From IMG/VR virus record IMGVR_UViG_2932987669_000001, positions 1 through 20,544 of that record: a stretch of 20,544 nt of DNA, one strand, 5' to 3'. The notes beneath the pieces are model-generated. The model was given only the letters and a program-made list of their open reading frames with translations. It did no database searches and had not been told where the DNA came from. The translations under genes were made by a program, and so were the position numbers. The DNA comes from a virus. This document shows positions 2,414-19,193 of the stretch, one piece after another (position 1 is the first letter of the stretch; the number at the start of each line of letters is the position of its first letter).

Positions 2414-2454
2414 TGACCCGATTTCCGGTTCTCTCCTGTAGTTAGTCTCCAACC
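2414..2454 (+). promoter_or_regulatory. Copy 1 of bipartite motif (putative element-sigma promoter), upstream of the integration module
   Basis: TGACCCG (2414-2420), 16 nt, TGTAGTTAG (2437-2445), TCTCCAACC. Confidence 0.75.
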
Positions 2455-2494
2455 GCGATAAATACGCGGGCAACCAAAACCACCGGAGGCTTCC

Positions 2495-2758
2495 TTGCAG
2501 CACCATCCCAGCGAGATGTCCCCAGACCAAATCCGGGCAGAGGTCGGCGATATCCTCATTCGTGGCTATTTGCGAAGTCACCTCGGCGAGAGCCTTACCC
2601 AATCGGGCGAACAGCCAGAATTCCGTACAGGGCTCCAGAAACCCGTTAACGATATCAGGGAAGTGAAACGAGAACCGCTTCGTAATCCCCAGAAAAGACT
2701 TGCTGGCAGCGCAAAAAAAGAGCTCCATAGAGACGCTCCTTTTGGACAAAAACAATAA
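2495..2758 (+). CDS. Small hypothetical protein upstream of the DUF2924/recombinase pair
   Basis: GGAGG before TTG 2495 (alternative ATG nearby). N-terminal MSPDQIRAEVGDILIRGYLR resembles the short helical proteins that precede DUF2924 genes. Confidence 0.55.
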   Translation: MQHHPSEMSPDQIRAEVGDILIRGYLRSHLGESLTQSGEQPEFRTGLQKPVNDIREVKREPLRNPQKRLAGSAKKELHRDAPFGQKQ

Positions 2759-2770
2759 AGAGAGCTGTTT

Positions 2771-3277
2771 ATGTATTCTGAAGTAGAGAAAAAAATCAAG
2801 GCCCTCGACCGCATGAACGGCCTTGAGCTTCGTGCTGCCTACATCGAGGTGTTCAACGAGCGTCCCCATTCCCACCGGCACCAGTGGCTGAAACGTCGAA
2901 TTGCTTGGGGCATTCAGGCGAAAGCTGAAGGTGGTTGGTCCGAACGCTTCATTGCCGAGGCCCAAAAAGCGGATCTCACCGAATTGAGGGTGATGGCGCC
3001 TGGTTCTTCCCCAATCAAAAGGAAGAAACAAACGGAGCCCAAGACCGGCGAGGATTCGGCGCTGGACGACACGGGGCGGGACCCCCGAATCCCCAAACCC
3101 GGCACGGTCCTGGAGCGGGAGTTCAAGGGCCGCCAAGTTCGCATCACCATCAAGCGCTCAGGCTTCGAGTGGGACGGCAAGGTCTACGCGAGTTTCAGCG
3201 CAGCCGTCAAAGCCGCGACCGGCGCCAGTTACTCACCCTATGTCTTCTTTAAGCTGGGGGCCAAACCAAAGTCCTGA
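2771..3277 (+). CDS. DUF2924-family protein
   Basis: Motifs WLKRRIAWGIQAKAEGGWS, DPRIPKPGTVLEREFKG and GFEWDGKVYASFSA; lies immediately upstream of a serine recombinase. Confidence 0.85.
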   Translation: MYSEVEKKIKALDRMNGLELRAAYIEVFNERPHSHRHQWLKRRIAWGIQAKAEGGWSERFIAEAQKADLTELRVMAPGSSPIKRKKQTEPKTGEDSALDDTGRDPRIPKPGTVLEREFKGRQVRITIKRSGFEWDGKVYASFSAAVKAATGASYSPYVFFKLGAKPKS

Positions 3278-3300
3278 CCGGAGGCAACGATCGCGTGAGA

Positions 3301-4854
3301 ATGAAAGTCAATTCGAATACCAAGCCAGAGGGGGCCAAACCCGTGCTGGTGGCAGTTTATACCCGCAAGTCCACCGCGAAGGGCTTGAATGTTGAAGACA
3401 ACACGCTTCAATTTCAGCGGGAGGCCTGTGAAGACTTCATCAAGGCCAAGCGCGGTATCGGCTGGGAAGTCTATCCAGAATATTACGACGACGGGGGGTT
3501 CACCGGCGCAAATACCGATCGACCGGCACTGCAACGATTGCTTGCAGATGCGAAGGTTGGGAAGTTCGACGCGATCGCTGTGTACAAAGTCGACCGGATT
3601 AGTCGGAGCGTCGGCGACCTTGTGTCCATGGTCGAAGAGTTTCAAAGGCTCAACATTGACTTTGTCAGCGTCTCGCAAAGCTTTGATACCTCGAATTCGA
3701 TGGGACGCTTGATCTTGAATATCCTAGCCTCGTTCGGCCAATTCGAGCGAGAGACCATCGTGGAGCGAATCCGGGACAAGAGGGACGCCGCCCGGCGAAA
3801 AGGAAAGTTCCTCGGTGGCCCTCCGCCTTTGGGCTACGACATACATCCTGAAGGAAAACGGCTTGTCGTGAATGAAGAGGAGGCCGCCACCGTTTGTGAA
3901 GTCTTCCAGCTCTACCTGGAGCGCCAATCCATATTGGAGGTCATGGAAGAGTTGGCCGAACGAGGGGTTCGCACCAAGCGGCGGACCACTATTACAGGGC
4001 GGATCACGGGAGGCGTCCAACTCTCTCGTCCATATGTTTCCGGGATCCTTCGAAACCGGCTGTACCTTGGACAGGTCGCCTACAACGGGGAAGTCTTTGA
4101 AGGGGAGCACAAGGCAATCATCGACGAGCAAACTTTTGCCAAGGCCCAAGCACTGCTCTCCCAGAAGAACCCCCGCGATCGCAGGGCACGGTCGCGCAAG
4201 TCGTATGCACTCCTGCAGGGCCTCATCTATTGCCAGCATTCCGGCGAGCTGATGAGCCCGACCTACACGAAGCGGAACGGAAAGAAATACATTTACTATC
4301 AGTGCTCACGGTACAACCGAAAGGGGGAGTGTGGTTGCAAGAAACGGCGGATCTCGGCCGCGATGATCGAGCAGGATGTCATCGGTGAACTGCGGCGGAT
4401 CGGCTCCGATTCCGAGTTCATCGAGTCCCTGATCACACCTGCGGAAGCCAAATATGAGGCTCAGGTTTTTGCGCTCCGAGAAAACGAGGCCAACCTCAAG
4501 GTTGAGCGGAAAAGACTCCATGCACGGCTTAGGTATTGCGAACGAAAACCTGAGAAAGCAGAAGAAGTCGAGACCATTCAAGAGGGGCTTGAGGATATCC
4601 GTCAGGGTCTGGATCAAATAAGAAACCAGCTTGAACGAATAGGCTTGTTGCCGTTTTCCGCCTCTGATTTCAGGGACGCACTCGCCCGTTTCAACCCAGC
4701 TTGGGATGCTCTCTCGTTTGGCGAACGACGTCGTATGGTTGAACTGTTGATAGATCGAATCGTGTTCGACGGCAACGAGGGAAAATTCGGAGCATTCGAG
4801 ATCGTCGTGAGGAATAGTGGAATCGTCGCCTTGACGGAACAGCACGAGGTTTGA
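3301..4854 (+). CDS. Large serine recombinase (integrase): resolvase catalytic domain, recombinase domain, Zn-ribbon and coiled coil
   Basis: AVYTRKST (catalytic Ser), DDGGFTGANTDRPALQRLL, VYKVDRISRS, FGQFERETIVERI, GGPPPLGY, HKAII, LLQGLIYC...YYQC...C. Confidence 0.95.
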   Translation: MKVNSNTKPEGAKPVLVAVYTRKSTAKGLNVEDNTLQFQREACEDFIKAKRGIGWEVYPEYYDDGGFTGANTDRPALQRLLADAKVGKFDAIAVYKVDRISRSVGDLVSMVEEFQRLNIDFVSVSQSFDTSNSMGRLILNILASFGQFERETIVERIRDKRDAARRKGKFLGGPPPLGYDIHPEGKRLVVNEEEAATVCEVFQLYLERQSILEVMEELAERGVRTKRRTTITGRITGGVQLSRPYVSGILRNRLYLGQVAYNGEVFEGEHKAIIDEQTFAKAQALLSQKNPRDRRARSRKSYALLQGLIYCQHSGELMSPTYTKRNGKKYIYYQCSRYNRKGECGCKKRRISAAMIEQDVIGELRRIGSDSEFIESLITPAEAKYEAQVFALRENEANLKVERKRLHARLRYCERKPEKAEEVETIQEGLEDIRQGLDQIRNQLERIGLLPFSASDFRDALARFNPAWDALSFGERRRMVELLIDRIVFDGNEGKFGAFEIVVRNSGIVALTEQHEV

Positions 4855-4855
4855 G

Positions 4856-5266
4856 GTGAAAAAGCAGCGGACCTTCACATTGCCGAAAAGAGATGTCGGC
4901 ATTCATTCGGCTCCCCAGATACTGGGCCTTTGGGATCTAGAGCAAACTGTGCCAGCAGGTCGCGTCCCGCGAATTTCTCGATTGATGCGGTGTGCTTTTT
5001 TGATCGACCAAAAGATTCGAAATGGGGAATATGAAAACCAGGCAGACTTTGCGAGAAAACACCATCTTTCCAAGAATCGAGTAACGCAGATCTTAAACTT
5101 GCTACTGCTCGCTCCTGATATCGCGGAGGATATCATTGATCTCCCGTTGGTATATAAGGGGCCTGATCCCATCAATGAGCGATTGGTGAGGCCGCTGACC
5201 CATGAACGCTTATGGTCGATGCAGCGAATAAAATGGGCAAATCTCAAAGTTAGAGCCAGGTTGTAA
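4856..5266 (+). CDS. Recombinase-associated HTH protein (possible directionality/accessory factor)
   Basis: GTG start 1 nt after the recombinase stop. GRVPRISRLM...QADFARKHHLSKNRVTQILNLLLLAPDI is an HTH-like signature. Confidence 0.75.
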   Translation: MKKQRTFTLPKRDVGIHSAPQILGLWDLEQTVPAGRVPRISRLMRCAFLIDQKIRNGEYENQADFARKHHLSKNRVTQILNLLLLAPDIAEDIIDLPLVYKGPDPINERLVRPLTHERLWSMQRIKWANLKVRARL

Positions 5267-5463
5267 TTTTTTGAATAGGGCGTGGTTTGTCCTGCTGACG
5301 GACACTTTTGAGGGGCGGGAGAAAATAGAAGGTTGCTGCTTTTTTCTAACTAGCTGGAACCAGGGTGATTAACCTTCTCGTAAAAAGTCTGAAAAAACAG
5401 AACGGGGTGTTGACTAACGTGCCTGGTTTGTCGTCAAATACACGAACTTTCGATGTCTTCGTG

Positions 5464-5491
5464 CTGACTATCACACCTGTCTCAATATAGT
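5464..5491 (+). promoter_or_regulatory. Possible housekeeping sigma70 promoter for ORF 5575
   Basis: CTGACT-16 nt-TATAGT in an intergenic region; weak match only. Confidence 0.25.
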
Positions 5492-5574
5492 CTATGAGCG
5501 TTCTTTATGGGTGGTGGTCATTCGTTGCGACTTCGAAAACCCTAATCTTTTCGAATTTCTCAGGAGAATAGCGA

Positions 5575-5895
5575 ATGACCTATTCCACGGTACGCCAATT
5601 GTCCGCCCTCCGTCAGTTGCTCTACAAGAAAGTGACCTGTGAGCTTCTCTTCGGTGAAATCAAGGACTTGTACGTGACGAACGGCGAACCACTGCTCGAT
5701 CCTCCGCCGACAATCATCAAGAAATCCAGATATCCCGTGCGAAACAACCCACCGAAACCTTTTAATCCCGAGGCAACCCTTAGCCAGAGCTGGATCGATT
5801 TTTTTGTCGAGTTGGACGAAATCAAAAACGGATGGATTGATCAAATCAAAATCACCAACGGTGAGCCCAGAGAGCTGGAACACGAAAAAGCCTAA
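5575..5895 (+). CDS. Conserved hypothetical protein upstream of the sigma factor
   Basis: AGGAGA RBS before ATG. Motifs FGEIKDLYVTNGEPLLDPPP and GWIDQIKITNGEP form an internal repeat. Confidence 0.75.
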   Translation: MTYSTVRQLSALRQLLYKKVTCELLFGEIKDLYVTNGEPLLDPPPTIIKKSRYPVRNNPPKPFNPEATLSQSWIDFFVELDEIKNGWIDQIKITNGEPRELEHEKA

Positions 5896-5992
5896 GTGAT
5901 TTGATTCACCCATTCGAATGACACGTAAACGAAAATCGCCTCGCCTGGCTGGCAGGCTTCCAGCCACCGAAGAGGATTATTTTCACATTTTG

Positions 5993-6024
5993 TGACGCGG
6001 TTCCCCTTCGCTTTCTGTAGTTAG
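5993..6024 (+). promoter_or_regulatory. Copy 2 of bipartite motif, upstream of the sigma factor gene (putative autoregulatory promoter)
   Basis: TGACGCG (5993-5999), 16 nt, TGTAGTTAG (6016-6024). Confidence 0.7.
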
Positions 6025-6219
6025 TGCATGAACGAAGGAACCTGGCGTCCCACCTGCCCTTCGACGTCATCGATGAGGCTCACTCGGACGCCCCCTTTTT
6101 CGTTTACCCGCCCCATTCCAAAGCGCTTATCCAACAAGAGGCACGCCTGACCTGCGGTCCAAAGTAAGCGTGTGGCCACCAAAATACAACCCATTCTGAA
6201 CATCGACTGACCGGAACAA

Positions 6220-6268
6220 GCGGAGGTCGTTGTGGGTACTGCTACCGCAGTATCGCAACGGCCTCCGT
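6220..6268 (+). ncRNA. Long RNA hairpin in the sigma-factor leader
   Basis: GCGGAGGTCGTTGT-G-GGTACTGC [TACC] GCAGTATC-GCAACGGCCTCCGT forms about 22 bp including G:U pairs, with one bulge. Confidence 0.6.
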
Positions 6269-6306
6269 GTGTCTGCAGGGCCGGTCTGCGATTCGGTACC
6301 CGCAAC

Positions 6307-6342
6307 GGCCTTCCTCTGCCCCGGCAGAGGGAGAGCCTTTTT
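6307..6342 (+). terminator. Terminator-like hairpin that also buries the sigma gene Shine-Dalgarno sequence
   Basis: CTTCCTCTGC [CCCG] GCAGAGGGAG stem, closed by GGC/GCC and followed by TTTTT (6338-6342), which runs into the TTG start. Confidence 0.55.
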
Positions 6343-6919
6343 GAAACATCAAGAGATTCGTGAATTGTTCGGCAAGTACCTCGCAGGCTACATCAAGTAC
6401 AAAGCAGCCCATGTGATTGAAACCCTTGGCCTGCCTCGACATCACGTCGAGGATCTCGAACAGGAATTGATCATCCATCTTTGGGGAAAACAGCCCGATT
6501 GGAACCAAACCCTCGGGACCTGGAACTCCTTCGGCAAAATGGTGGTGGACCAGCGCGCCCGTAATTTCATCGACGAATGCACTGCGCAGAAACGGGATTG
6601 TCGGAAAACGTGTTCCATGAATGATCCTATCCCGCTAAACGGGGTCAATGAGAGCCCTCTTTTCAGTCAGCACCAGAACCAAACGCGCTTCAAGGCACCA
6701 TCAACCACTGAAGCGACTCATTTCAGAGTGGATTTAGAGCGATTCCTCCAGCGGCTCCCCGAAGGGCTGGCTGCTGTGGCGCTCGCCTTTCAAATGATGA
6801 GCGCTCCCGAGGTAGCTCGGGCCTTTGGCGTTTCTGAGTCGACCGCAAAACGCTACAAGAAAAACCTCCGGCAGCGATTGGCCAGAAGCGGTTTCCAAGA
6901 TTATTTCAGGTTTGCCTGA
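6341..6919 (+). CDS. ECF-like sigma-70 family RNA polymerase sigma factor
   Basis: Region 2-like VEDLEQELIIHLW...WNSFGKMVVDQRARNFI; region 4-like LERFLQRLPEGL...MSAPEVARAFGVSESTAKRY (HTH). TTG at 6341 after GGGAG is preferred over the ORF-track start at 6230. Confidence 0.85.
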   Translation: MKHQEIRELFGKYLAGYIKYKAAHVIETLGLPRHHVEDLEQELIIHLWGKQPDWNQTLGTWNSFGKMVVDQRARNFIDECTAQKRDCRKTCSMNDPIPLNGVNESPLFSQHQNQTRFKAPSTTEATHFRVDLERFLQRLPEGLAAVALAFQMMSAPEVARAFGVSESTAKRYKKNLRQRLARSGFQDYFRFA

Positions 6920-6957
6920 GCCGATTTGCCAACCGCGCCTGTAGTTAGTCCTCAACC
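6917..6957 (+). promoter_or_regulatory. Copy 3 of bipartite motif; its TGA is the sigma gene stop codon
   Basis: TGAGCCG (6917-6923), 16 nt, TGTAGTTAG (6940-6948), TCCTCAACC. Confidence 0.75.
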
Positions 6958-7011
6958 CAACGAGGGCGGAAGGCCCGAAAAAGACGGGTCGCGATCGACA
7001 GCCAAGATGGA

Positions 7012-7051
7012 TGATCCGTTTCTCTCCTGCTTCCGGTATTTAGTCTCCAAC
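7012..7051 (+). promoter_or_regulatory. Copy 4 of bipartite motif
   Basis: TGATCCG (7012-7018), 16 nt, GGTATTTAG (7035-7043), TCTCCAAC. Confidence 0.7.
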
Positions 7052-7126
7052 ACGCCCCGAAGGGTTTCAGCTCCCTCGGGGTCAAAACGGGACACCAAGC
7101 TCGATCCTAAAAAAAATAAAAAATCC

Positions 7127-7167
7127 TGACCGGATTCGCCGCTGGTTTCTGTATTTAGCCCCTACCC
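7127..7167 (+). promoter_or_regulatory. Copy 5 of bipartite motif, directly upstream of the replication/recombination operon
   Basis: TGACCGG (7127-7133), 16 nt, TGTATTTAG (7150-7158), CCCCTACCC. Confidence 0.7.
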
Positions 7168-7197
7168 ATGCCGACCACCTCCCGAAAGGACCCACCC

Positions 7198-7548
7198 ATG
7201 CCCAAGCTCATCTACAAATACGAGTTCAAAGACCACGTGTCCATGGACGCCGTCGAAAGCGACCTGGCGCTTGCCCTGATCTCGGCCGAGGCCTTGTTTG
7301 GCCAGTCCCGCGTGCTCCTCGAATGCGATCTGGCCGCCGACTTCAAGAGGCGGACCCTGGTGATCCAGGCCGGGAACCAGGTCGGCCAAACCGTGAACAC
7401 GTTGTTCGTCGGCCTGGTCCATCGTTTCCTCGGCCAAGATGCCTTCTCGCTTTCCCGCATTCACCCCTGCCCCAGCCAGCCACCTCGACACCCGCGCAAC
7501 CGGAAGAAACGCAGACGCAAAAAGTCTGCGGCCGAGGCTGCATCATGA
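7198..7548 (+). CDS. Conserved hypothetical protein, first gene of the operon
   Basis: AAGGA RBS (7186-7190) before ATG 7198. Globular N-terminus with a basic tail. Stop overlaps the next start (ATGA). Confidence 0.75.
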   Translation: MPKLIYKYEFKDHVSMDAVESDLALALISAEALFGQSRVLLECDLAADFKRRTLVIQAGNQVGQTVNTLFVGLVHRFLGQDAFSLSRIHPCPSQPPRHPRNRKKRRRKKSAAEAAS

Positions 7549-8561
7549 AACCGAAGACGCTGATCACCTATTCCCAGCTCGCCACCTTCCTGAGCTGCCG
7601 CCAGAAAATGCGCTGGCGTTACATCGAAGAGCTGGTGCCGCTGGAACGGGCACAGGCCCTTTCGTTCGGTTCGCTGATCCACGACTGCTTGGAGTCCTGG
7701 CACAGCCAACAGGACCTGCCGGCAGTGCTGGATCACATCGATCGGATCTATTCCGATCGAGCCACCGACGAGAAACAACGCGCCGACTGGCATCTCGCGA
7801 CCGCCATGATGAAGGGCTACGTCAAACGCTACCCCACCGAGGATTTCGAAATCATGGCGCTCGAGAAAAAGTTCGAGGGCCCGATCGTGAATCCGAAGTC
7901 GGGCCGCGTGTCCCGGTCCTTCCGGTTCGCGGGTAAGGTCGACGGGATCGTGAAGCGGGGCGACGACCACTTCCTGCTGGAGACCAAGACGGCCTCGCAA
8001 GTGGACGCCGCCTACTTGGAACGGCTGTGGCGAGATTTTCAGATCTCGATCTATTCCCTATACGCCCGGCGCGTTTGGGGCCTCGAGATCAAAGGTGTCA
8101 TCTACAACGTCTTGTGCAAGGCGCGCCTCCAGCAAAGCCGGGGCGAAACCGAGGCCGAGTTCGAAGCCCGCCGCGCAGCGCTGATCGCGAAATCGAAAAC
8201 TGGTCGGTCCTCCGCGAAGCGACGGCTGCCGGAATCCGACGAAGCCTTCAAAGACCGGCTTGCTGCCAAATACGACGAGCCCGGCATGTTCGTCCGCGAG
8301 GAGGTCCTGTTCACCCAAGGTGACCTGCAGCAGGTCGCCGGGGAAATCTGGGACCTGACTCAGGCCCTGCTCGAAGCCCGCCGAGCAAACGCCTATTTGC
8401 CGAACCGAGGCGCCTGCTACCAGTACGGCCGCGCGTGCGCCTACCTGCCGTTGTGCCAGTCGCCCGACAACGAACACCTCATCCCCACCTTCTACGAACG
8501 TCAACCCCCGCATTCGGAGCTGGCCGAGGAACCGGCCGCAGCCGAAGCGCCCATCTTTTGA
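7545..8561 (+). CDS. PD-(D/E)XK exonuclease, Cas4/AddB/RecB-like, with a probable Fe-S cluster
   Basis: TYSQLATFLSC, FGSLIHDCLE, FAGKVDGIV, LLETKT, QISIY and C-terminal C-x6-C-x5-C. ATGA overlap with the upstream gene. Confidence 0.9.
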   Translation: MKPKTLITYSQLATFLSCRQKMRWRYIEELVPLERAQALSFGSLIHDCLESWHSQQDLPAVLDHIDRIYSDRATDEKQRADWHLATAMMKGYVKRYPTEDFEIMALEKKFEGPIVNPKSGRVSRSFRFAGKVDGIVKRGDDHFLLETKTASQVDAAYLERLWRDFQISIYSLYARRVWGLEIKGVIYNVLCKARLQQSRGETEAEFEARRAALIAKSKTGRSSAKRRLPESDEAFKDRLAAKYDEPGMFVREEVLFTQGDLQQVAGEIWDLTQALLEARRANAYLPNRGACYQYGRACAYLPLCQSPDNEHLIPTFYERQPPHSELAEEPAAAEAPIF

Positions 8562-8590
8562 CCCATACATATAAATAAGGAGACCCCTGC

Positions 8591-9307
8591 GTGAAACTCC
8601 CCACCGAAAAGCAACCCAAGAACCAATCACTCATTTCCCAAACCGTCCTGTTGTACGGCCCAAACAAAATCGGCAAAACCGAGCTGTGCGCCCAGATTCC
8701 CGACACGCTGTTCCTCGCTACCGAAGCGGGCCACAACCATGTCGAGGCATTCGTCCAACCGATCAAGAACTGGGAGGATTTCCTTAAGGCGTGTGCCGAG
8801 ATTGCGAAGATGGACCATTCCTTCAAGGTCATCTGCATCGACACGGTCACAAACCTGCTGTGCTTCTGCACGGACCATGTGTGCGCGCAGCACGGCATCC
8901 AGCACGAAAGCGACATGGGCTACGGCAAAGGTTATGCGTTGGTGCGCAACGAGTTCATCCGTGCCCTGACCAAGTTGAGCATGCTCCCGGTCGGCCTTTG
9001 GATGACCGCGCACAGCACCGAGAAGGCCATCGAAACCCGAACCGGCACGCGAACGCGGATCGTGCCGAACCTCCCGGAGAAGATGGGACAGTTCATTCTC
9101 GACTTGGCCGACATCGTGGCGCTGTGCTCGGTAGATCGAAATGAGAAGGGACTAAACCAGGCCGAACGGGTGATCTACACCAAGCCAAGTCCGGACTACG
9201 TCGCCGGTGACCGTTCAGGTCGGCTGGAGGCCAAGCTGCCCATGACCTACGCGGCTCTGGCCAAAGCCTTCGAGGCCACCACCCCCGAACCCCAAACCCA
9301 AGCCTAA
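8591..9307 (+). CDS. AAA_24 / Sak4-like phage ATPase (single-strand annealing recombinase family)
   Basis: Walker A YGPNKIGKT, Walker B VICIDTVT, GYGKGY, MTAHS, AGDRSG; AAGGAG RBS. Confidence 0.85.
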   Translation: MKLPTEKQPKNQSLISQTVLLYGPNKIGKTELCAQIPDTLFLATEAGHNHVEAFVQPIKNWEDFLKACAEIAKMDHSFKVICIDTVTNLLCFCTDHVCAQHGIQHESDMGYGKGYALVRNEFIRALTKLSMLPVGLWMTAHSTEKAIETRTGTRTRIVPNLPEKMGQFILDLADIVALCSVDRNEKGLNQAERVIYTKPSPDYVAGDRSGRLEAKLPMTYAALAKAFEATTPEPQTQA

Positions 9308-9319
9308 CCATTGAAACTC

Positions 9320-9364
9320 GGCAAGGCATGACATGGCTGCGGCTCCCGCTTGGCTAGGCAAGGA
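9320..9364 (+). repeat. Degenerate GGC-NN pentamer tract (candidate guide-like ncRNA)
   Basis: GGC AA|GGC AT|GAC AT|GGC TG|c|GGC TC|c|CGC TT|GGC TA|GGC AA|GGA; intergenic, just before the RBS of the RAMP-like gene. Confidence 0.6.
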
Positions 9365-9384
9365 CACTCAGGAGAACCAGAATA

Positions 9385-9951: not shown

Positions 9952-10120
9952 AATCCTGACCCGATCACTCATCCACCAGCATGCTTTCAAAGAGGAGGCG
10001 GATCGATCGAAACCCGTTTTGACCCATAGCGCAGGGACCGCCCTCGGTCGCCTACCCGCCAAGCTTCCCGCGAATCTTCAAGCCATCACCAACGCATTCG
10101 TGGGAACCGACAACACCTAG
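9941..10120 (+). CDS. Possible 59-aa ORF overlapping the RAMP gene stop
   Basis: GTG 9941 to TAG 10120 is open (VQPEILTRSLIHQHAFKEEADRSK...GTDNT); weak RBS and no recognisable motif. Confidence 0.25.
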   Translation: MQPEILTRSLIHQHAFKEEADRSKPVLTHSAGTALGRLPAKLPANLQAITNAFVGTDNT

Positions 10121-10169
10121 CGCAATCGAGTTAACCAGCTCGTTTTAAACCACAAACCACAACACCATT

Positions 10170-10241
10170 GGCTTGGATTCCCAGGTGCCTGGATGACCGA
10201 CATCCCGGCGCCCTGGCACCGCTGTGCCCGAATCCAGAGCC
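10170..10241 (+). ncRNA. Predicted three-way-junction RNA upstream of the DUF669 gene
   Basis: P1 GGCTTGGATTC/GAATCCAGAGCC; P2 GGTGCC-T-GGATG [ACCGA] CATCC-C-GGCGCC; P3 GGCAC [CGCT] GTGCC. Confidence 0.45.
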
Positions 10242-10257
10242 GCTAGGAGAAACAACC

Positions 10258-10704: not shown

Positions 10705-10706
10705 CC

Positions 10707-11147: not shown

Positions 11148-13363
11148 ACAACCACGAAAACAGTACTTCCAAAACCCTGACTGGTGAAGTCTGCCGGATC
11201 ACCTATCAAAATGGACCCTTCATGATTGGGAAACTTCGAACGGAGTCAGGCGAAGTCAAGACATTCAAAGGGAACCTCTCGGCCCAGGTTGGCCAGCGCA
11301 TCACCTTGAAGGGGACTTGGAAACACCATTCCAAATTTGGTTGGCAGATGGATGTGGCTACTGTCCAGGTGTCCCTGGATCTTACACCCGAGGGTCTGTG
11401 CAACTACCTCGCCGGGAATCCAGCCTTTTCAGGTATTGGAACCGCGAAAGCTGCCGCGATCGCCGATGCCTTCGGTTCCGATTTTGAACGGGTTCTTTTC
11501 GAGGAGCCGGAGCGAATCAAGGAAGTGGCCCATGTCCCCATGGAAACGATCGAGAACATCCGGGCTGCTTGGCGCGGGAACCAGACCAACAACGAGGTGA
11601 TGGCGTACCTCTCGGCCTACGACCTGACCCACCACCAGGTCGCCACCTTGATCAGCACCTATGGGCACGATGTCGTTGGCATTTTGAAAACCAATCCCTA
11701 TCGAATCATTGAGGATGTCCCTGGTTTTGGATTCAAAAAAGCCGATGAGATTGCGTTGAAGGTAGGGGTCGCTCAGGATGCGGATTGCCGTATTGAAGCG
11801 GCCCTACGCCACAAGGTAAGGGAGGAGAAAGAAAACGCAGGTCATTGCTATGTCGACTGGGAAGCCCTTATTGAGAAGACCGAAAAGGACCTGGCTTTGG
11901 ATGCCAACGATAGCGAGGAGCGAATTGATCGTTGCCTGACCGGCCTCGTCGAAAAGGGAAAACTTGTTCAATCGTCGGTCCACGGCCGTTTCGTGCTGTC
12001 GCATCCGCTCATTTATCAATATGAGACGGAGCTCCGGGACATGTTCCACGATGCCTGGAAAACCAACTGTCACTTCGAGTACGAGGACATTGCGTCCATC
12101 ATCACCGAGGCAGATACGGGCGAGCATCAATTGCTGGCCGGTCAGCGCCAGGCCGTCGAATATGCCTTGCGGCACCGAATCGCGCTCATGAGCGGCGGTG
12201 CCGGCAGTGGCAAAACGTTCACCATTCGAAAGGTCAAGGAGATCTACGAGGAACGCAGATTGGCGGTGACCCTTTGTGCGCCAACTGGGAAAGCCGCCAA
12301 ACGAATGGAGCAGGTCACCGAGATGGATGCCTCCACCATTCACCGGTTGTTGGGGTACCAAGGGAAGCAATTCCGCCGCCTCGATAGAGATCCGATCGAT
12401 ACCGACATCATCATCGTCGATGAATTTTCCATGGTCGACGTCGAATTAGCTTGGGCCCTGTTCCAGTGCATTGACCTGGAACGGACCACGGTGCTGTTGG
12501 TAGGCGATCATAACCAGATCGAACCGGTCGGGCCGGGAAACCCGTTGCGGGACCTGATCCGGTCCAAGGCCATCCCCACGGTCATTCTTGATGAAGTGGT
12601 CCGCCAAGCGGGAGAGCTGAAAGAGAACTGCATGGCCATCCTGAAAGGCCACGTCATGCCCACTCCCAAAGGGGACGGCAGGAAGCCTTGGTACTCGGTA
12701 GAGAACTTCAAGCAGGTCACGATGGTCCAAGAATTCCTGGTGTCCCTCTACGAAGGCCGGCTGGAGCGTGGTCTTGGCTTGGACCCGGTAAAGGATGCCC
12801 AGATCCTCACCCCGCAGAGGAAAGGGCCTTTGGGGACCATTGCCCTCAACAAACTGATCCAATCGGCGGTGCAGAAACACCACTATGGAGTGATCGTCCC
12901 CCGCGTCGGCGAAAAACAGAAACCGAAGTTCTACAGACACGACAAGGTGATCCAGACGCGCAACAACTATGACTTGGGCGTCATGAACGGCGCGGTCGGT
13001 ACTGTTTTGGAAGTGGCTTCAAACGGGGTTGTGACAGTCGTGTTCGAGGATCAGACGGTATCCATCGCAGGGAAGGATTTGATAAATCTCGAACTGGCCT
13101 ATGTCCTGACGGTCCACAAGGCCCAGGGGTCCGAGTACCCCTGCGCCATTGTCGTCGCCCACGAAACCCACCAGTTCTTCAACAACCAAAACCTGCTGTA
13201 CACGGCTGTCACCCGTGCCAGGAAGACCGTCATGCTGGTCGGCGACGGCTGGGGCGCCAAAGGTGCGGCCCAGAAACGAAACGTCAACAAACGACAAACC
13301 CTTTTGGGCACCCTGCTGGCCGGAGAGCCCGTTGATTTGAAAGGAACCGCACATGCCTCGTGA
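11144..13363 (+). CDS. recD2: ATP-dependent RecD-like DNA helicase (RecD2 family, SF1B)
   Basis: HhH motifs (GIGTAKA, NPY...VPGFGFKKADEIA), GGAGSGKT, APTGKAAKR, VDEFSMVD, GDHNQIEPVGPG, VRQA, TVHKAQGSEY, LLYTAVTRARK. ATGA overlap at 11144. Confidence 0.95.
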   Translation: MNNHENSTSKTLTGEVCRITYQNGPFMIGKLRTESGEVKTFKGNLSAQVGQRITLKGTWKHHSKFGWQMDVATVQVSLDLTPEGLCNYLAGNPAFSGIGTAKAAAIADAFGSDFERVLFEEPERIKEVAHVPMETIENIRAAWRGNQTNNEVMAYLSAYDLTHHQVATLISTYGHDVVGILKTNPYRIIEDVPGFGFKKADEIALKVGVAQDADCRIEAALRHKVREEKENAGHCYVDWEALIEKTEKDLALDANDSEERIDRCLTGLVEKGKLVQSSVHGRFVLSHPLIYQYETELRDMFHDAWKTNCHFEYEDIASIITEADTGEHQLLAGQRQAVEYALRHRIALMSGGAGSGKTFTIRKVKEIYEERRLAVTLCAPTGKAAKRMEQVTEMDASTIHRLLGYQGKQFRRLDRDPIDTDIIIVDEFSMVDVELAWALFQCIDLERTTVLLVGDHNQIEPVGPGNPLRDLIRSKAIPTVILDEVVRQAGELKENCMAILKGHVMPTPKGDGRKPWYSVENFKQVTMVQEFLVSLYEGRLERGLGLDPVKDAQILTPQRKGPLGTIALNKLIQSAVQKHHYGVIVPRVGEKQKPKFYRHDKVIQTRNNYDLGVMNGAVGTVLEVASNGVVTVVFEDQTVSIAGKDLINLELAYVLTVHKAQGSEYPCAIVVAHETHQFFNNQNLLYTAVTRARKTVMLVGDGWGAKGAAQKRNVNKRQTLLGTLLAGEPVDLKGTAHAS

Positions 13364-16300
13364 TCCCCAAGTGACGCAGTACTATAAAACGTTGACCGCC
13401 GTGCCCATTTCGGACGTGGCCCGGGATCTTCTCGGCTCCCGGATCACGGAGGCGTCGGCTCACAGGCTTGAATGTGATTGCCCGCATCACCAAAGCACAT
13501 CCAAGCGAAGCTTGCACGTGTTCCTGGATACCAACTCCTGGCGGTGCTGGGGCTGTCAGGTCGGCGGGGACGTGCTTCACCTGGTCGAGTTCATCCAGTC
13601 AGGCCAATGCACCACCAAGATGCGTGGGTCCATGACGGAATCGCACAAGGCCGCGCGGGACTACCTGGCCAGCCGGTGCGGCTTGAAACCTTTGGGTGCG
13701 CATCGCAAATCCGAGGCCGAAATCAAAGCCATGGAGGAAGCATACTTCCATAAGGAGCAATGCTTGACCGCTTTGGCCGCCATTGCCGAGCTGTTCCACA
13801 GGCGATTGCTCGAAAACGCTCGGGCACTGGGTTGGATCCGCGAGAATTATGGCCTCACCATGGAAACAATCACCGATCTGAAAATCGGCATTGCCAACCT
13901 CTCCAGCCAGGAGACCATCGAGCAACTTCACACAGAATTCGGCATCGAACGCCGCGACGCGATTCGGACCGGCGCGTTCTGGCTGACCGAAAACAAAATG
14001 GCGAAGTCCCTGCTCAAGGATCGAGTCACCTTTCCCTATTGGCGCGGCGGCCGGATCGTCTCCATGATTGGACGGAAGACGCCCTGGTCAAAAAAGGACA
14101 CCATGGGCAAGTACCTGAAACTGCTGGTTCATGATCCCAAAAAGCGTCCCTACGTCGATCCCTGCATGGACAACAGCACCTTTTACAATGAGGACTGCCT
14201 GCTTCGCAAACCGGAGCAGGTGCTCATCACCGAGGGCGTGACCGATTGCATCGCGGCCATGCAGCAGGGTCTCGCCGTGATCTCGCCTGTCACAGTCGGG
14301 TTCCCAAAAAGGGATGTAGCCCGCCTGGCCGAAGCACTTGCGCACGTCAAGCACGTATTCATCTGCCAGGATAACGAATTGAGCCGGGTCGGGCTGAGCG
14401 GTGCGATCATGACGGCGACACTGTTGGAGGAGAAGCACATCGACGCGCGGATTGTCACGCTTCCGTTGGGTCGCAAACAACGAGACGCCCGCGATCAACT
14501 TCTCAAGGATTTCGGGATCGGGCCGGACTCGGATCCGAGGAACCTGAAAGCGTCACTGAGGGATCCGAGCGAGGAGGACCTGGCCACTGTCAAACGCTTG
14601 ATTGCCGACGCCAAGATTGATCTCAACGGCTATTTCACCTTGGGTTACACCGCCGAGGAATTTCAAGAGCTGCTCGCGGAGGCGAAGTCACCCATCGAGA
14701 TCAAAATTGCCCAACTCGATATCACGCTGGACGACAAGCAAAGGTTCAAGCAGCGCCAGCCGCTCATGGTGGAGATTGCCAAGTTGCCGGAATACCTCAA
14801 GGAAAAATGCTTGAAGCTCATCCAGCAACGATACGGGAAGAAGGCGATCACCCTGAAGGCACTTCGAAGCGAGCTTCGGGCCGGGAGCAAAGCCGCGAAA
14901 GCCGAAAAAAAATCCGGGGACCAGCGCCAACAGTTGGCGACCCAGCTTCAGGCCGTCAAAGAGGGGTCCTGCCAAGAGGCGATGCTCAAATATCGGTTGG
15001 CGGCTGATGATCCTTCCAGGGTCACAAATGAAGAACTGGGCCAGGTCGTGTACCAGTGGTTCAAAGAAAACGGTGCGAAGTTTTTCTACACCCAGCATGA
15101 GGAACCGTTCGTGTATTTCCAAAACGAAATCCTGGAGTCGGGTAGCCGGAATGTCGGGAGGCGACGCTCGTACCTATCCGTATTTCAAAAGCACACGGGG
15201 CTTACAAAGGAGTCTTCGTCAGGCCGGGTCATCCTCGAAACCCTGCGGAACCTTGCGCGGGAGGAGGGTGTCCAAGTCGCCAACCTAGCCTGGATTTACT
15301 CCCAGACGGACACATTCACCGTGTATTTCAACTTGAATAACGACGCCAATGAAATCGCCTGCATCTCACCTGATGGCGTGAGGCTTCTCAAGAATGGCGA
15401 CAACCCAAAAGGGATCGTGCTTCGTGAATCGGATAAGATGCGGCCGATCCAGTTTATCCCCGATGCCGACCCCGTTGAGGCAGCGAAGCTGGTCGACAGG
15501 ATCATCATGCAAAACATGACCTGTGCTGCGCATGACCGAAAGTTCGTCATGGCCTGGCTTTCTTGTTTTCTTCTCATCGATTTCGCCGGGACGCGACCCA
15601 TGACCCGTTTTGAAGGTAAGCAAGGCTCGGGCAAATCGGCAGCCGGAAAAATGATCACGACGCTCATCTATGGTGACCCTCAGTTGCGCACAAGCACCAC
15701 CCCCGCTGATTATGCCGATGCCGCGAGGAATCCGCTATGCGCCCTGGACAATGTGGAAGTGAAGAACGTCGACACTGAGAAAAACCAGTTTTTTCTTCTC
15801 GCGACGACCCAGGCCGTTCGGGAGAAGATCGCCATCGGGACCAATTCCGATGTGGTCAAGACACCGACCAAGTGCCTAATCAACACGACGGGAATCGAAC
15901 CCCTGGGTGCGGAACTCGGCGAAATCCAGACCCGGCTCTTCACCATCGAGTTCGATGAAGCGCATGGCCGATCCGGGTTCATCGAGTTTTCCGTGCTCAA
16001 TGAAATCCGAAAGCACCGAGACTACATCTTGTCAGCCTTGATGATTCGGACGGCCGGGGTTTTGGCCTTGATCAAAGCAGGCTGGCACCAAGCCGCCGTG
16101 GAATTGCTGGAGAACCGGTTGGGTAACCACAACAAGAAGCGATGCCATGACTACCTTAGCTTGATGTACCTGATGATCATCTGCATCGAGGAGCCGGAAG
16201 AAATCGTCGCCGCCCTCCAAACCCTGCGGGAATCTTTCTCCTTCATGATCGAGCGATTGAATGAAGTCACCGAGGAAACGGAGGCGGATGGGAACCAAAT

Positions 16301-16727
16301 CGCACTCGGCCTGTCGATCCTATTTCAGGCATACCGGAAAGCCCTGGAGGCTGACGAGGCGAGGCAGACCAAAGACTCCTCGGCTAGTTTTGGAGAGCGA
16401 TACCTTATCTCCTTCCATTCGCCTTTTCGGATCAAAAAGGTCTTGGCCAAGGAACTCCTGGTCAGCCTTCAGCGCGTGTTCAAGGATTTCACCGGAAAAC
16501 CATTTGGTATCCAGAACGCGCGACAGTTGGGCCACCGATTATTGAATGACCGGAAAGCCATCGAAGCAGCCGGGTTTCAACTTGAAAGAGTAAAAGGTAG
16601 CGGGAACCGGTATCGGTACACGATCGAGCAGGTCGCTTTTGATGAAGAGATGGACGCCGTGGAGGAGGCCGCAGAAAATCCCGAGCGCCAAAGTAATGAA
16701 GCCCTTGTGGTTGCCATGACCCGTTGA
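13353..16727 (+). CDS. DnaG-type primase (CHC2 Zn finger, TOPRIM) fused to a C-terminal P-loop NTPase/helicase domain
   Basis: CPHH...WRCWGC Zn finger; DRVTFP, GKYLKL; ITEGVTD and CQDNE (TOPRIM); Walker A GKQGSGKS; Walker B LCALDNV. Confidence 0.9.
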   Translation: MPRDPQVTQYYKTLTAVPISDVARDLLGSRITEASAHRLECDCPHHQSTSKRSLHVFLDTNSWRCWGCQVGGDVLHLVEFIQSGQCTTKMRGSMTESHKAARDYLASRCGLKPLGAHRKSEAEIKAMEEAYFHKEQCLTALAAIAELFHRRLLENARALGWIRENYGLTMETITDLKIGIANLSSQETIEQLHTEFGIERRDAIRTGAFWLTENKMAKSLLKDRVTFPYWRGGRIVSMIGRKTPWSKKDTMGKYLKLLVHDPKKRPYVDPCMDNSTFYNEDCLLRKPEQVLITEGVTDCIAAMQQGLAVISPVTVGFPKRDVARLAEALAHVKHVFICQDNELSRVGLSGAIMTATLLEEKHIDARIVTLPLGRKQRDARDQLLKDFGIGPDSDPRNLKASLRDPSEEDLATVKRLIADAKIDLNGYFTLGYTAEEFQELLAEAKSPIEIKIAQLDITLDDKQRFKQRQPLMVEIAKLPEYLKEKCLKLIQQRYGKKAITLKALRSELRAGSKAAKAEKKSGDQRQQLATQLQAVKEGSCQEAMLKYRLAADDPSRVTNEELGQVVYQWFKENGAKFFYTQHEEPFVYFQNEILESGSRNVGRRRSYLSVFQKHTGLTKESSSGRVILETLRNLAREEGVQVANLAWIYSQTDTFTVYFNLNNDANEIACISPDGVRLLKNGDNPKGIVLRESDKMRPIQFIPDADPVEAAKLVDRIIMQNMTCAAHDRKFVMAWLSCFLLIDFAGTRPMTRFEGKQGSGKSAAGKMITTLIYGDPQLRTSTTPADYADAARNPLCALDNVEVKNVDTEKNQFFLLATTQAVREKIAIGTNSDVVKTPTKCLINTTGIEPLGAELGEIQTRLFTIEFDEAHGRSGFIEFSVLNEIRKHRDYILSALMIRTAGVLALIKAGWHQAAVELLENRLGNHNKKRCHDYLSLMYLMIICIEEPEEIVAALQTLRESFSFMIERLNEVTEETEADGNQIALGLSILFQAYRKALEADEARQTKDSSASFGERYLISFHSPFRIKKVLAKELLVSLQRVFKDFTGKPFGIQNARQLGHRLLNDRKAIEAAGFQLERVKGSGNRYRYTIEQVAFDEEMDAVEEAAENPERQSNEALVVAMTR

Positions 16728-16833: not shown

Positions 16834-17664
16834 TCAATCCTTCGGTTTTTGGAAGCGGAGGATCGAATTGGCTGGCGCCGGTTTGATGATCTCGATGTGG
16901 TCCGCTCGCACCTGGCCGATTTGGTCAGCGTCCTTCACAAAACAAATCAGGCCATAGCCATCGCCGAATGGGAACTTGAAGGTTCCCCGATTCTGCCAAA
17001 GCGAACCTTCTGTCCAGCCCTTTGCCAAGGCTTTCGCCTGAATCGCAGCCACCTTTTCCCGTGCCGACTCGGCAACGGGCGTCCAAAACGACCAAGAGTC
17101 ATCGGCGGCTTTTTCGGGAAACAGGTAGGCTTGCTTGCGCCGGTCCTCCTCGGCGCGGTCTCGGTCCTCCGGTGCTGGTTCGAACCCCAGGCGAATCAAT
17201 GGCTCCATCGATGGAGGCTTGTAAAGGCGGGCACGAAGCGCGAACGCCTTGCGGGCTTTGTCGATCGAGTCTTCGTCGAATGTCACCAAGGCCCAGGCGT
17301 AGATTTCTTGAAAGCGCTGCGACACCTGATCGAAAAGCGCTTGCGGCATCTTACCCGTGTGGTGAGCCCACTGGACCTTTTCCATTTGTTGCCACAGCCA
17401 GGCGAAATAGATTGGGTCCAGCCGACGATAACAGGTGCCGTTCACACCAAGGTCCCCAGCGAGGCCAGTCGGCCGATCGGTTCGCCAGTAAGTACAATCC
17501 GTGGCCACGTACAGCGCCTCATCATCGCAGGACGGACGCTGGTGGGCTTGCCGGTCGTCGCAGGCTTGGCGGACGGCGACGGTATCTTCCTGCGCGGCCG
17601 CTTCCTTGGCTTGGTTGGCGAGGTAGGCTTGGTGGGTGCGGTCCAGCATCTCAAGGGTGATCAT
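16834..17664 (-). CDS. Hypothetical phage/ICE protein (two globular segments)
   Basis: 276-aa ORF with protein-like composition (YRRLDPIYFAWL; FPFGDGYGLICFV), AGGTG RBS, downstream of motif copy 6. Confidence 0.75.
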   Translation of the reverse strand: MITLEMLDRTHQAYLANQAKEAAAQEDTVAVRQACDDRQAHQRPSCDDEALYVATDCTYWRTDRPTGLAGDLGVNGTCYRRLDPIYFAWLWQQMEKVQWAHHTGKMPQALFDQVSQRFQEIYAWALVTFDEDSIDKARKAFALRARLYKPPSMEPLIRLGFEPAPEDRDRAEEDRRKQAYLFPEKAADDSWSFWTPVAESAREKVAAIQAKALAKGWTEGSLWQNRGTFKFPFGDGYGLICFVKDADQIGQVRADHIEIIKPAPANSILRFQKPKD

Positions 17665-17735
17665 GGTTCACCTACCTGAAACCGGCTGTTCAGCGTGTTC
17701 CCGGAGTGAGGGGCCGTCTGGGATGATGGGTCCAT
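17661..17735 (-). CDS. 24-aa leader ORF translationally coupled to the 276-aa gene
   Basis: AAGGAG RBS, ATG 17735, MDPSSQTAPHSGNTLNSRFQVGEP; TGA overlaps the next ATG (ATGA). Confidence 0.4.
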   Translation of the reverse strand: MDPSSQTAPHSGNTLNSRFQVGEP

Positions 17736-17760
17736 TCTGTGTGTCTCCTTTGGGAATTGG

Positions 17761-17801
17761 GGTTGGAGACTAACTACAAAAATGAACCCTGAATCGGGTC
17801 A
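17761..17801 (-). promoter_or_regulatory. Copy 6 of bipartite motif (minus strand)
   Basis: Minus strand reads TGACCCG, 16 nt, TGTAGTTAG, TCTCCAACC; oriented toward the minus-strand gene. Confidence 0.75.
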
Positions 17802-18047
17802 AAGGAGATCGTTTTCGTCGTTTTGTGGACCCGCCCCGTCATGGCTCGCCAGTGCCCATCAAACAGGTCAGCCTGGGCGTGATCCGTTCAGAATGGTCAC
17901 GCCAAGCTGGCCGTGGGGCCGGTCCTCGTTAGAAAACGGGGCAATGTGAGAAGCGCGGAGGCAGGATCAATGGGCATTGCGCCAAATGGGTGCGATCTGG
18001 AATGAACAACCCGAAGAGTTCGGTCATGCTTAACATGCTTGCTTTGT

Positions 18048-18382
18048 AATGCTGAAAGAGGAAGGTGTTAGTTGTTGGTTTCATTCTCGGAAATATGCAC
18101 CCCTTTTATTTTGCATTTTTGCGTTTTTTCTTTTTTGGGCCTTCTCGACCTGCTGCCTACCTGGTCACCAGAGGCGTCCTTTTCAGCATTTATTTAGGAG
18201 CATTTTTCCGCCTTACTACTAACTAAACTAACTATTTTAATATAAATATATATAATACAACAGTTTAGGTCTGGTGGTTGCGCCGGTGGTCCTGGTGGTA
18301 GTTCTTCAGGAACAACTCGCCAGGGGGTCTGGGATCTTCGGTTAAGGGTTAAACTAAGTTGTTGAATTCATTAATCTTAACC
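18048..18382. other. AT-rich non-coding region with inverted repeats; putative replication origin
   Basis: Pure A/T run TATTTTAATATAAATATATATAATA; CTAACTA repeated; inverted repeats 18048-18057/18181-18190 and 18088-18101/18197-18210; IHF-like TAAGTTGTTGAAT (18355-18367). Confidence 0.4.
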
Positions 18383-18408
18383 AGTGTAGCTTTTGAGTTG
18401 TCACGGAT

Positions 18409-18783
18409 TCAGTGAACTGGCGCTGGCTCGCCCCCTTGACCAACGACCTGTGCTCGGACGTTCTGAACGGCGACAGCAACTGTTTGAAGCCAAGCAGGAT
18501 CCTGGGACCGATTCCGGCTCCTTCCAAGTGCGCCCTCAACCGGTTCAGATTTTTCGGCCTGATGTCCTGTCAGAGTGATGAAAGTGGCCACCCCCGATTC
18601 ATAGAGCCCTGCTTTCGGGCATCCCTGCGCCAACGCCAGGTCCGCAATCACTTCGACTGTTTTCCGAGCTAGCTCCGATCGGCTTCCAAAAGAAAAGGCA
18701 CCATCGTCGGCCTGGTCACTGGCCGGGAAACCATTCAGCAGGTTACGACGCGTTTCTTCGGCTATCGCCAGGAACTCGGACAC
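18409..18783 (-). CDS. Hypothetical protein or gene remnant
   Basis: 124-aa ORF, GTG start, no clear RBS or motif. Confidence 0.25.
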   Translation of the reverse strand: MSEFLAIAEETRRNLLNGFPASDQADDGAFSFGSRSELARKTVEVIADLALAQGCPKAGLYESGVATFITLTGHQAEKSEPVEGALGRSRNRSQDPAWLQTVAVAVQNVRAQVVGQGGEPAPVH

Positions 18784-19152
18784 CGGCTCGGAGCCTTCAG
18801 TGATGCACGGATCCTCGCTTGGCGGCCTGAATGCCGGTTCCGCGGTTTAGTGGTCCTGGCAGTTTGTCGAGATTCTGTTTGCCGTACCCTTGTCAAGCCC
18901 ATCTGATGGCACAGCCTGGCGAATTACATGGGGCCCGGTTTCCGAAAACTACAGCTTTCGCCAGTGCTCTCCTCGGATTCCCCGAGCCGCCCATGGGCCA
19001 ACGAAAGAAAACATCCCGCAGGAGCACAACGACACCCAGGACTCCTGTCGGCTTCGTTGGCGGCGTTCTTTGACGGAGCCTGATCTTGACGGTTGCGATC
19101 AGCTCGCTCCGATCGTTGGCGGGAAGGCTGTCGACCATTCTTCAAATACGGG

Positions 19153-19193
19153 TGACCCGATCCGCATTTGAAATCTGTAGTTAGTCCTCAACC
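19153..19193 (+). promoter_or_regulatory. Copy 7 of bipartite motif, upstream of the late/packaging-like region
   Basis: TGACCCG (19153-19159), 16 nt, TGTAGTTAG (19176-19184), TCCTCAACC. Confidence 0.75.

Follow-up and report, generated by a model that had tools for sequence, protein, structure and literature searches.

A prophage-confined bipartite motif and its probable reader, an ECF-type sigma factor encoded on the same element

Introduction

Sigma factors that are encoded on phages and plasmids and that serve promoters private to those elements are already established. The sigma factor SaPh711_gp47 of Salmonella phage 7-11 has eight late bipartite promoters of the form GTAAtg-N16-aCTA (PMC8948821), and phiEco32 gp36 recognises the sequence AATGTA centred at −11.5, using its N-terminal domain for the −10 element and its C-terminal domain for the −35 region and needing the co-factor gp79 (PMC12276001). 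For SigN (ZpdN) of the Bacillus subtilis plasmid pBS32, autoactivation has been shown experimentally and a LexA-repressed host-sigma promoter serves as trigger (PMC6751061). Extracytoplasmic function (ECF) promoters of B. subtilis consist of a −35 box tGAAACnTTTt and a −10 box CGTA or CGTC, separated by spacers of 14–17 bp (PMC5758882). Here we analyse a stretch of viral DNA (IMG/VR record IMGVR_UViG_2932987669_000001, positions 1 to 20,544; the whole 20,544 nucleotides (nt) are called the window below) in which a two-box motif recurs ahead of the genes of a prophage that also carries a gene for a 192-amino-acid (aa) sigma factor (6341–6919). To judge from sequence comparison, these motifs are probably prophage-private promoters read by host core RNA polymerase together with this ECF-type sigma factor.

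Results

A 41-nt bipartite motif is confined to one prophage

A preliminary description of the window, made from its letters alone, had reported seven copies of a bipartite motif with an invariant 16-nt spacer and had proposed them as the probable regulon of the sigma factor. The pattern TGABSSG-N16-KGTAKTTAG indeed matches the window exactly seven times, with starts at 2414, 5993, 6917, 7012, 7127 and 19153 on the plus strand and at 17801 on the minus strand (P1 to P7, numbered by position; Table 1), and 100 dinucleotide-preserving shuffles of the window gave no match at all (chance expectation 0). The spacer keeps its 16-nt length in every copy while its letters vary, and the stretch TC(TC/CT)CAAC, said to follow the second box in five copies, is found in five of the seven, the copies at 5993 and 7127 being without it. 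Upon alignment of the window copies, the conserved unit proved longer than had been noted, extending over 41 nt as TGACCCGATT-N12-CTGTAGTTAGTCyCCAAC. Furthermore, AT content reaches 0.59 in the 22 nt that precede the −35 box, compared with 0.45 in the prophage (P ~5e-5 by resampling), a comparison for which the prophage is an imperfect control, intergenic DNA being AT-richer in general.

The window corresponds to G000:C1:5613302-5633845 in a single-contig genome of 11,786,365 bp and 60% G+C, and the whole of this genome was scanned on both strands with a 41-nt weight matrix of the motif. Twelve sites scoring 34–58 bits were recovered, all of them within window-relative positions 2414–61588 and inside one prophage; the five that lie beyond the window are at 30011, 33098, 44456, 55396 and 61588. 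Elsewhere in the genome (11.7 Mb) no sequence scored above 12.8 bits, so that the motif is far from being equally common in host DNA, the outcome that the preliminary description had named as telling against it. The exact 20-base promoter form had 0 matches in 185,579 species genomes (one per species) and a metagenome collection, and no match to the motif pattern was found in 100 related genomes. A 16-base −10 pattern did give 8 single matches in IMG/VR; weight-matrix rescoring showed the rest of the motif to be missing from these, and they were set aside as chance.

Judged by its genes, the element is a temperate, myovirus-like, contractile-tailed prophage of roughly 70 kb, and its DNA runs rightwards from ~2400. 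Within the window it encodes a DUF2924 protein, a large serine recombinase, the sigma-like gene, a PD-(D/E)XK nuclease, AAA_24, DUF669 and ERCC4 proteins, a RecD2-like helicase and a primase; past the window follow a large terminase, portal, Mu F-like protein, D12 methyltransferase fusion, tail sheath and tape measure, and then baseplate J, P2-I-like proteins and a DUF4815 protein. Among the open reading frames (ORFs) scanned against Pfam, none for an RNA polymerase was found, and a phage RNA polymerase as reader of the motif was rejected on that ground.

The gene at 6341–6919 encodes a divergent ECF-type sigma factor

That the gene product is a sigma factor of ECF type is shown alike by its homologues, by profile comparison and by the predicted fold, in line with the preliminary description. 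A word-based protein search with the sigma sequence matched only the sequence itself, and an exhaustive HMMER search returned 780 homologues at E ≤ 1e-3; among the top homologues that were aligned, 50 of 60 match Pfam Sigma70_r2 (PF04542). Compared with solved ECF sigma factors, the family profile matches SigE at 2e-10, region 2 of SigE, RpoE and CnrH at E values of 2e-10 to 1e-6, and region 4 of the structures 3hug and 6dv9. A single-sequence fold was unusable (predicted local distance difference test score, pLDDT, 45.8), and the alignment-based AlphaFold (AF2) model (pLDDT 88.8) was used in its place. This model has two helical domains separated by a low-confidence linker at residues ~85–120, residues 1–82 being helical with pLDDT 91–98, and its top Foldseek matches are the whole ECF sigma factors SigL, SigE, SigH and AlgU. 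The protein thus has the two-domain composition of the ECF group, with regions 2 and 4 both present and regions 1.1 and 3 absent from its 192 residues. The TTG start at 6341 agrees with the homologues, the N-termini of which align at residue 1.

No other match to the sigma factor at E ≤ 1e-12, and hence no paralogue at that threshold, was found in the host genome, and no anti-sigma partner was recognised. The sigma gene differs from that of L041, a metagenome contig 97% identical to this region, by 12 synonymous and 6 non-synonymous codons, which points to purifying selection. A tblastn search of 50,697 deposited phage genomes with the sigma factor gave no match at E ≤ 1e-3, hence no protein homology to gp36 or gp47 was found; the best match to the large terminase in the same genomes is 28% identical.

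Copies head the modules of the prophage

All twelve sites fall between genes or at the edge of one and point the same way as the next gene, which bears out the upstream, co-oriented placement reported for the window copies and extends it to the rest of the prophage. Within the window, copies stand ahead of the integrase operon and the sigma gene as well as ahead of the replication and packaging genes, the coverage that had been proposed. The five outside sites lie before the portal gene, a methyltransferase-protease-scaffold gene, the genes of the tail module and two blocks of baseplate genes. At 8 of the 12 sites a start codon preceded by a Shine-Dalgarno sequence lies 59–82 nt from the first base of the motif. 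The cargo genes carried within the prophage are all without the motif.

P2 is a candidate autoregulatory promoter of the sigma gene and is conserved in L041. The L041 version of P4 has the −35 box TGACCCG, which is nearer the consensus. As a separate observation, L041 carries a 10-nt insertion immediately after the −10 box of P5. Behind the lone minus-strand copy, P6, the 24-codon upstream ORF has a strong Shine-Dalgarno sequence and overlaps the start of the 276-aa gene by ATGA, an arrangement that suggests translational coupling of the two.

Motif sequence and sigma factor change together in related prophages

The closest homologues of the sigma factor (41%, 37% and 42% identical) lie on metagenomic phage contigs with the same gene order, as does another at 30%, and the order of the replication genes after the sigma gene is kept in L013, L015, L016, L044 and G434. 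In L013 (sigma 41% identical), CTGTA[AT]TTAG occurs four times in 26.7 kb, where we estimate a chance expectation of ~0.15 (~3e-6 per position, 53 kb counting both strands). All four sites are syntenic with those described here: one precedes the DUF2924-integrase genes, one the sigma gene and one the homologue of the minus-strand gene, and the remaining one immediately follows the sigma stop codon; sites of the form CTGTAATTAG are among them, one ahead of the DUF2924-integrase genes (the P1 counterpart) and one upstream of the minus-strand gene (the P6 counterpart). The minus-strand gene at 16834–17664 is taken to be real because its homologue in L013, 41% identical, is likewise on the minus strand, and a promoter-like site stands upstream there too. 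L015 (sigma 37% identical) has TGAsCyGCTT-N13-CGGTArTCAG twice between the sigma gene and the next gene.

A colinear prophage is present in G434, a 2.8-Mb genome from a different family of the same phylum. Its large terminase (TerL), portal, sheath and PD-(D/E)XK proteins are 68%, 67%, 62% and 55% identical to those of the window prophage, identity among the proteins other than sigma spanning 45–68%, while the sigma factor is only 26% identical. The motif there has become CCGACACtTT-N9-CCGGTA(A/G)GTAtCCAa, which can also be written CGACAC-N15-GGTAAGTA or CGACAC-N15-CCGGTAAGTA. The exact form matches six times genome-wide, always inside the prophage, in the 38 kb that follow its sigma gene and in the orientation of that gene. 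Nine sites come up with a weight matrix; one of them stands directly after the sigma stop codon, and others precede homologues of the genes that follow 19153, 30011, 33098, 44456, 55396 and 61588 here. A promoter directly after the sigma stop codon is therefore common to the window prophage, L013 and G434. With syntenic sites of altered sequence in both G434 and L013, comparison of the genomes indicates that promoter positions are conserved while promoter sequence diverges along with the sigma factor, the most divergent of the proteins.

Contigs L041 (positions 1–2522) and L042, both from metagenomes, are 97% identical to window 5560–7560, and by this match the phage or a close sibling of it exists in environmental samples. 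In L016 (1683–3047) the sigma homologue is called as a 454-aa protein with a C-terminal part unlike the 116-aa neighbour, and may be a fusion or a miscalled gene.

Motif geometry is ECF-like

In the window the sites read TGACCCgATTt ... TGTA, with 17 nt between TGACCC and TGTA and a T-rich stretch after the −35 box; in G434 they read CGACACtTTt with a spacing of 15 nt. By these features the geometry is ECF-like and not sigma-70-like. The housekeeping class (TTGACA-N17(±1)-TATAAT, with A at −11 and T at −7) was rejected, as the −10 match is ~2/6 in any register and the spacer to TAGTTA is 20 nt; a sigma-70 scan of the window called none of the seven motif sites and found no excess of sigma-70-like sites (7 compared with 9.4 expected).

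These results bear on the possibility that the sites are promoters for a sigma factor of the host (its housekeeping factor, or an ECF factor exploited by the phage) and that the phage sigma factor does something else. The −35 box does contain TGAC, as TTGACA does, and large genomes of the host's kind usually encode many ECF sigma factors. An autoregulated host ECF gene would, however, carry a site of its own, and nothing above 12.8 bits was found outside the prophage; the sigma-70 fit is poor, and in relatives whose hosts belong to other families the motif is retained and follows the phage sigma factor. We regard this as the least probable of the readings weighed here.

Operators of a phage DNA-binding regulator, whether sites for an activator or elongation-blocking repressor sites, could share several properties with the motif. 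The stoperators of mycobacteriophage L5 are element-confined, many in number, asymmetric, intergenic and oriented with transcription, as are the sites here, and no classical repressor gene was recognised in the window by Pfam-based ORF scans. In L5, the phage repressor binds a stoperator as one short asymmetric box, whereas each site here is bipartite, with two unrelated boxes joined by a non-conserved spacer of fixed length, T-rich after the first box, AT-rich upstream and ECF-like in geometry. The constant short distance to a start codon in 8 of the 12 sites and the change of the motif with the sigma factor in G434, an otherwise well-conserved relative, also count against operators, and no candidate DNA-binding protein besides the sigma factor was found. 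On balance an operator function is improbable, and promoters served by the prophage sigma factor remain our favoured reading.

The motif tail and the sigma leader may act in RNA

The TCyCCAAC tail had been described as a discriminator or start region. Its conservation in five copies stands, and at some sites it probably has a further role as an anti-Shine-Dalgarno strand. For eight sites, the predicted probability that the Shine-Dalgarno sequence is unpaired was compared with that in 100 shuffles of the upstream part. The masking strand is the TCTCC tail or a CCTCC in the spacer, complementary to the Shine-Dalgarno sequence of the next gene. Masking is significant at three of the eight sites, namely 17801 (GUCUCC with GGAGAC), 30011 and 61588 (locations: window 17735–17770 on the minus strand, G000:C1:5643312 and G000:C1:5674889), and individually non-significant at the other five, 2414 and 7127 included; the mean unpaired probability over the eight lies below all 100 shuffles. 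At P6, the TCTCC of the promoter tail masks the Shine-Dalgarno sequence of the upstream ORF in the predicted read-through RNA. Transcripts reading through a site from upstream would in this way mask the next ribosome-binding site, and promoter-initiated transcripts would not.

Such pairing, exceeding shuffles at single sites and in the mean, together with the hairpins that follow several copies, is what might be expected if the conserved block worked mainly as RNA, providing anti-Shine-Dalgarno strands, processing sites or 5′ stabilising hairpins. We consider that very improbable as the main function. More than half of the tested sites do not mask significantly, the pairing does not involve the most conserved letters (TGA...G and GTA.TTAG), P2–P4 are without a nearby start codon, and neither the rigid 16-nt spacer nor the AT-rich stretch upstream is explained. 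The RNA function complements reading by the sigma factor: since masking is significant at only some sites, the folding predictions argue for a partial, additional function and not for a substitute, and the promoter interpretation stays.

The sigma message itself has a structured leader. The word GCGGAGGTCGTTGTRGGT and a hairpin of variable sequence with kept pairing stand before every sigma homologue examined, including those of G434, G457 and G391, and are present even where the sigma factor is only 26–30% identical. The arms differ from phage to phage (ACTGC/GCAGT, GTTGC/GCAAC, GCAGTTTT/AAAACTGC, CGCCG/CGGCG and others), a covariation judged by eye only. A CCTCC...GGAGG hairpin immediately ahead of the sigma start codon, which hides the ribosome-binding site, completes the leader in these phages, and Rfam has no match to it. 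In the window, the leader region 6025–6343 includes GCGGAGGTCGTTG besides the hairpin at 6310–6333. Three L041 substitutions in the 5′ arm of the 6310–6342 hairpin all keep the pairing. Taken together, these patterns suggest that the leader may be a riboregulator gating sigma production. A further and, in our estimate, unlikely proposal is that the phage has no classical repressor-operator switch and that the choice between lysis and lysogeny rests on RNA-controlled sigma synthesis, in which the leader would sense a signal and release the sigma factor, P2 would amplify it and the twelve promoters would fire. If this were true, the lysis-lysogeny decision would hang on whether one sigma factor gets made.

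Coordinates and neighbouring features

The features discussed are collected in Table 1. For the conserved 116-aa protein at the head of the replication module, no match was found in genome contigs or metagenome contigs, and the 106-aa gene has a counterpart of 35% identity at the corresponding position in L013.

Table 1 Positions of the sigma gene, motif copies, transcription units, leaders and cargo (window-relative unless a contig is named)
Feature	Position	Strand	Description
P1	2414–2454	+	Heads the integration operon; 57.6 bits
Integration operon	2495–2758; 2771–3277; 3295–4854; 4856–5266	+	87-aa ORF; DUF2924; large serine recombinase; 136-aa ORF
106-aa gene	5575–5895	+	Conserved; directly upstream of P2 and sigma gene
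P2	5993–6033	+	348 nt upstream of sigma start; 45.5 bits; no TCyCCAAC tail
Terminator-like hairpin and T5	6310–6342 (hairpin 6310–6333)	+	Contains the sigma Shine-Dalgarno sequence; abuts the TTG start
Sigma gene	6341–6919	+	Divergent ECF-type (group 4); 192 aa; TTG start
P3	6917–6957	+	First of three tandem copies; its TGA is the sigma stop codon
P4	7012–7052	+	Second tandem copy
P5	7127–7167	+	Third tandem copy; preceded by an A-tract; 71 nt before the 116-aa gene
Early/replication module	7198–16727	+	Downstream of P3–P5; order: 116-aa protein (7198–7548), PD-(D/E)XK nuclease, AAA_24, 188-aa protein, DUF669, ERCC4, RecD2-like helicase, primase
P6	17761–17801	−	Lone minus-strand copy; 55.2 bits
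P6 transcription unit	16834–17735	−	24-codon upstream ORF (17735–17661) and 276-aa gene (17664–16834)
P7	19153–19193	+	Heads the packaging block; 55.2 bits
Packaging block	After P7	+	Small ORFs, 331-aa and 521-aa proteins, large terminase past the window end
Cargo: LRR and LRR-Roc-COR genes	26493–29662 (G000:C1 ~5639794–5642963)	−	
Cargo: 1290-aa ORF	40359–44231 (G000:C1 ~5653660–5657532)	+	Low-GC; PIN-TPR-GreABC domain
Cargo: deaminase-like gene	53651–55153 (G000:C1 ~5666952–5668454)	−	Cytidine/dCMP deaminase-like
Sigma leader, window	6205–6343		
Sigma leader, L013	6869–7010		
Sigma leader, L015	1859–2172		
Sigma leader, L016	1536–1685		
Sigma leader, L043	516–650		
Sigma leader, L044	995–1258		
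Sigma leader, L036	17059–17134	−	
Sigma leader, L033	15929–16004	−	
Sigma leader, L037	4389–4464		

Two further stretches stand out in composition. Directly left of P1, window 1–2300 is a block of 41% G+C in the 60% G+C genome, which may be either cargo of the prophage or an island of its own. Its two minus-strand ORFs, one of 356 aa and one of 275 aa that is cut by the window edge, have no Pfam match; L013 has a DUF4365 gene at the corresponding place. In the gene-poor stretch 17830–19150, a very AT-rich patch at 18040–18270 contains T-runs together with ATATAAATATATATAATA and the repeat CTAACTAAACTAACTA. Pfam gave no family for the small ORFs nearby, and the patch might serve as an origin, as a packaging site or as a region of host-type promoters. 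Rfam gave no family at gathering score in the window (noise alone at E ≤ 5 in 5950–7200), and no tRNA genes were found.

Discussion

We propose that domain 4 of the sigma factor binds TGACCC(G)ATT at about −35 and that domain 2 binds and melts (C)TGTAGTTAG at about −10, the rigid spacer giving TGACCC-N17-TGTA; by analogy with phiEco32 gp36, transcription would probably start in the CCAAC that follows the −10 box. One promoter class would then drive the integrase operon, the sigma gene, the replication genes with their three tandem copies and packaging; beyond the window it would drive the portal, head, tail and baseplate genes, and P2 would give positive feedback on the sigma factor. Since this class heads nearly every phage module, making or releasing the sigma factor would switch on the whole programme. 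The sigma factor is probably first made from host-type promoters ahead of the 106-aa gene, where sigma-70-like hexamers lie at ~5410–5491 (CTGACT-N16-TATAGT at 5464–5491, called by the scan, and TTGACT...TCAAAT, seen by eye); that these are the host-read trigger of the sigma cascade is a guess. The message so made would be gated by the structured leader that hides its ribosome-binding site.

Several observations weigh against this interpretation or loosen parts of it. The sigma factor's own Sigma70_r4_2 (PF08281) score is 19.6 bits, below the Pfam cut-off of 25.7, and its sequence gives no direct Pfam region 2 match at E ≤ 0.001. The AAC and CGT cores typical of ECF promoters are missing, with ACC/CCC and TG in their places. 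In L013 the −35 box is not visibly conserved, which makes the −35 assignment less secure than the −10 assignment, and L041, at 97% identity, has diverged too little for footprinting (~1.8 changes would be expected in the 44 invariant motif positions, and 0 are seen). A co-factor like phiEco32 gp79 may also be needed.

For an uncultured temperate phage group, the analysis offers a testable transcription map of twelve promoters and one regulator. Since the integrase, sigma, replication and virion genes share a promoter class, expressing the 192-aa sigma factor should suffice to induce the prophage, and deleting it should lock the prophage. The diverged sigma-promoter pairs (TGACCC-N17-TGTAGTTAG and CGACAC-N15-GGTAAGTA) are candidate orthogonal expression parts, and could serve as models for the evolution of ECF-type specificity.

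Among known systems, the locus has the marks of an element-private sigma regulon, with a sigma factor encoded on the element and a motif that is confined to it, co-oriented with its operons and altered with the sigma factor in relatives. No new principle is involved. It resembles phage 7-11 in pairing a phage sigma factor with the host core RNA polymerase and in repeating before its operons a phage-private bipartite consensus with a fixed 16-nt gap. In phage 7-11, a lytic podovirus, the sigma factor serves late genes only and early genes are left to host sigma-70; the present phage is temperate, its motif also heads the integrase, sigma and replication genes, its box sequences differ, and no sequence similarity between the sigma factors was found. 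As in phiEco32, the sigma factor is a distant homologue, and the AATGTA core shares TGTA with the −10 box here; unlike phiEco32, which is lytic, with single-element promoters, a middle and late regulon and gp79, this prophage has no gp79-like protein that we could identify.

The likeness to SigN lies in a sigma factor on a mobile element that is weakly similar to ECF factors, in a regulon confined to the element, and in what would be a sigma-dependent promoter of its own alongside host-sigma trigger promoters; the difference is that the regulon here is the phage programme itself and that the trigger is only guessed. With SigW, SigX, SigM and SigV of B. subtilis (PMC5758882) the protein shares a two-domain build of ~190 aa, a −35 box followed by a T-rich stretch and a −10 box ending in GTA (CGTA there, TGTA here), and with cellular ECF factors generally a rigid spacer within or near 14–17 bp and, apparently, autoregulation. 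It departs from the cellular factors in having other letters in place of the AAC and CG cores, a much longer −10 block (CTGTAGTTAG) and a regulon that is viral and not a stress response. Judged on these comparisons, the system works like the gp36 and gp47 systems from outside their protein families. It differs from the known cases in belonging to a temperate phage, in a single promoter class that spans integration, regulation, replication and morphogenesis, and in a sigma factor and phage group that had not been described.

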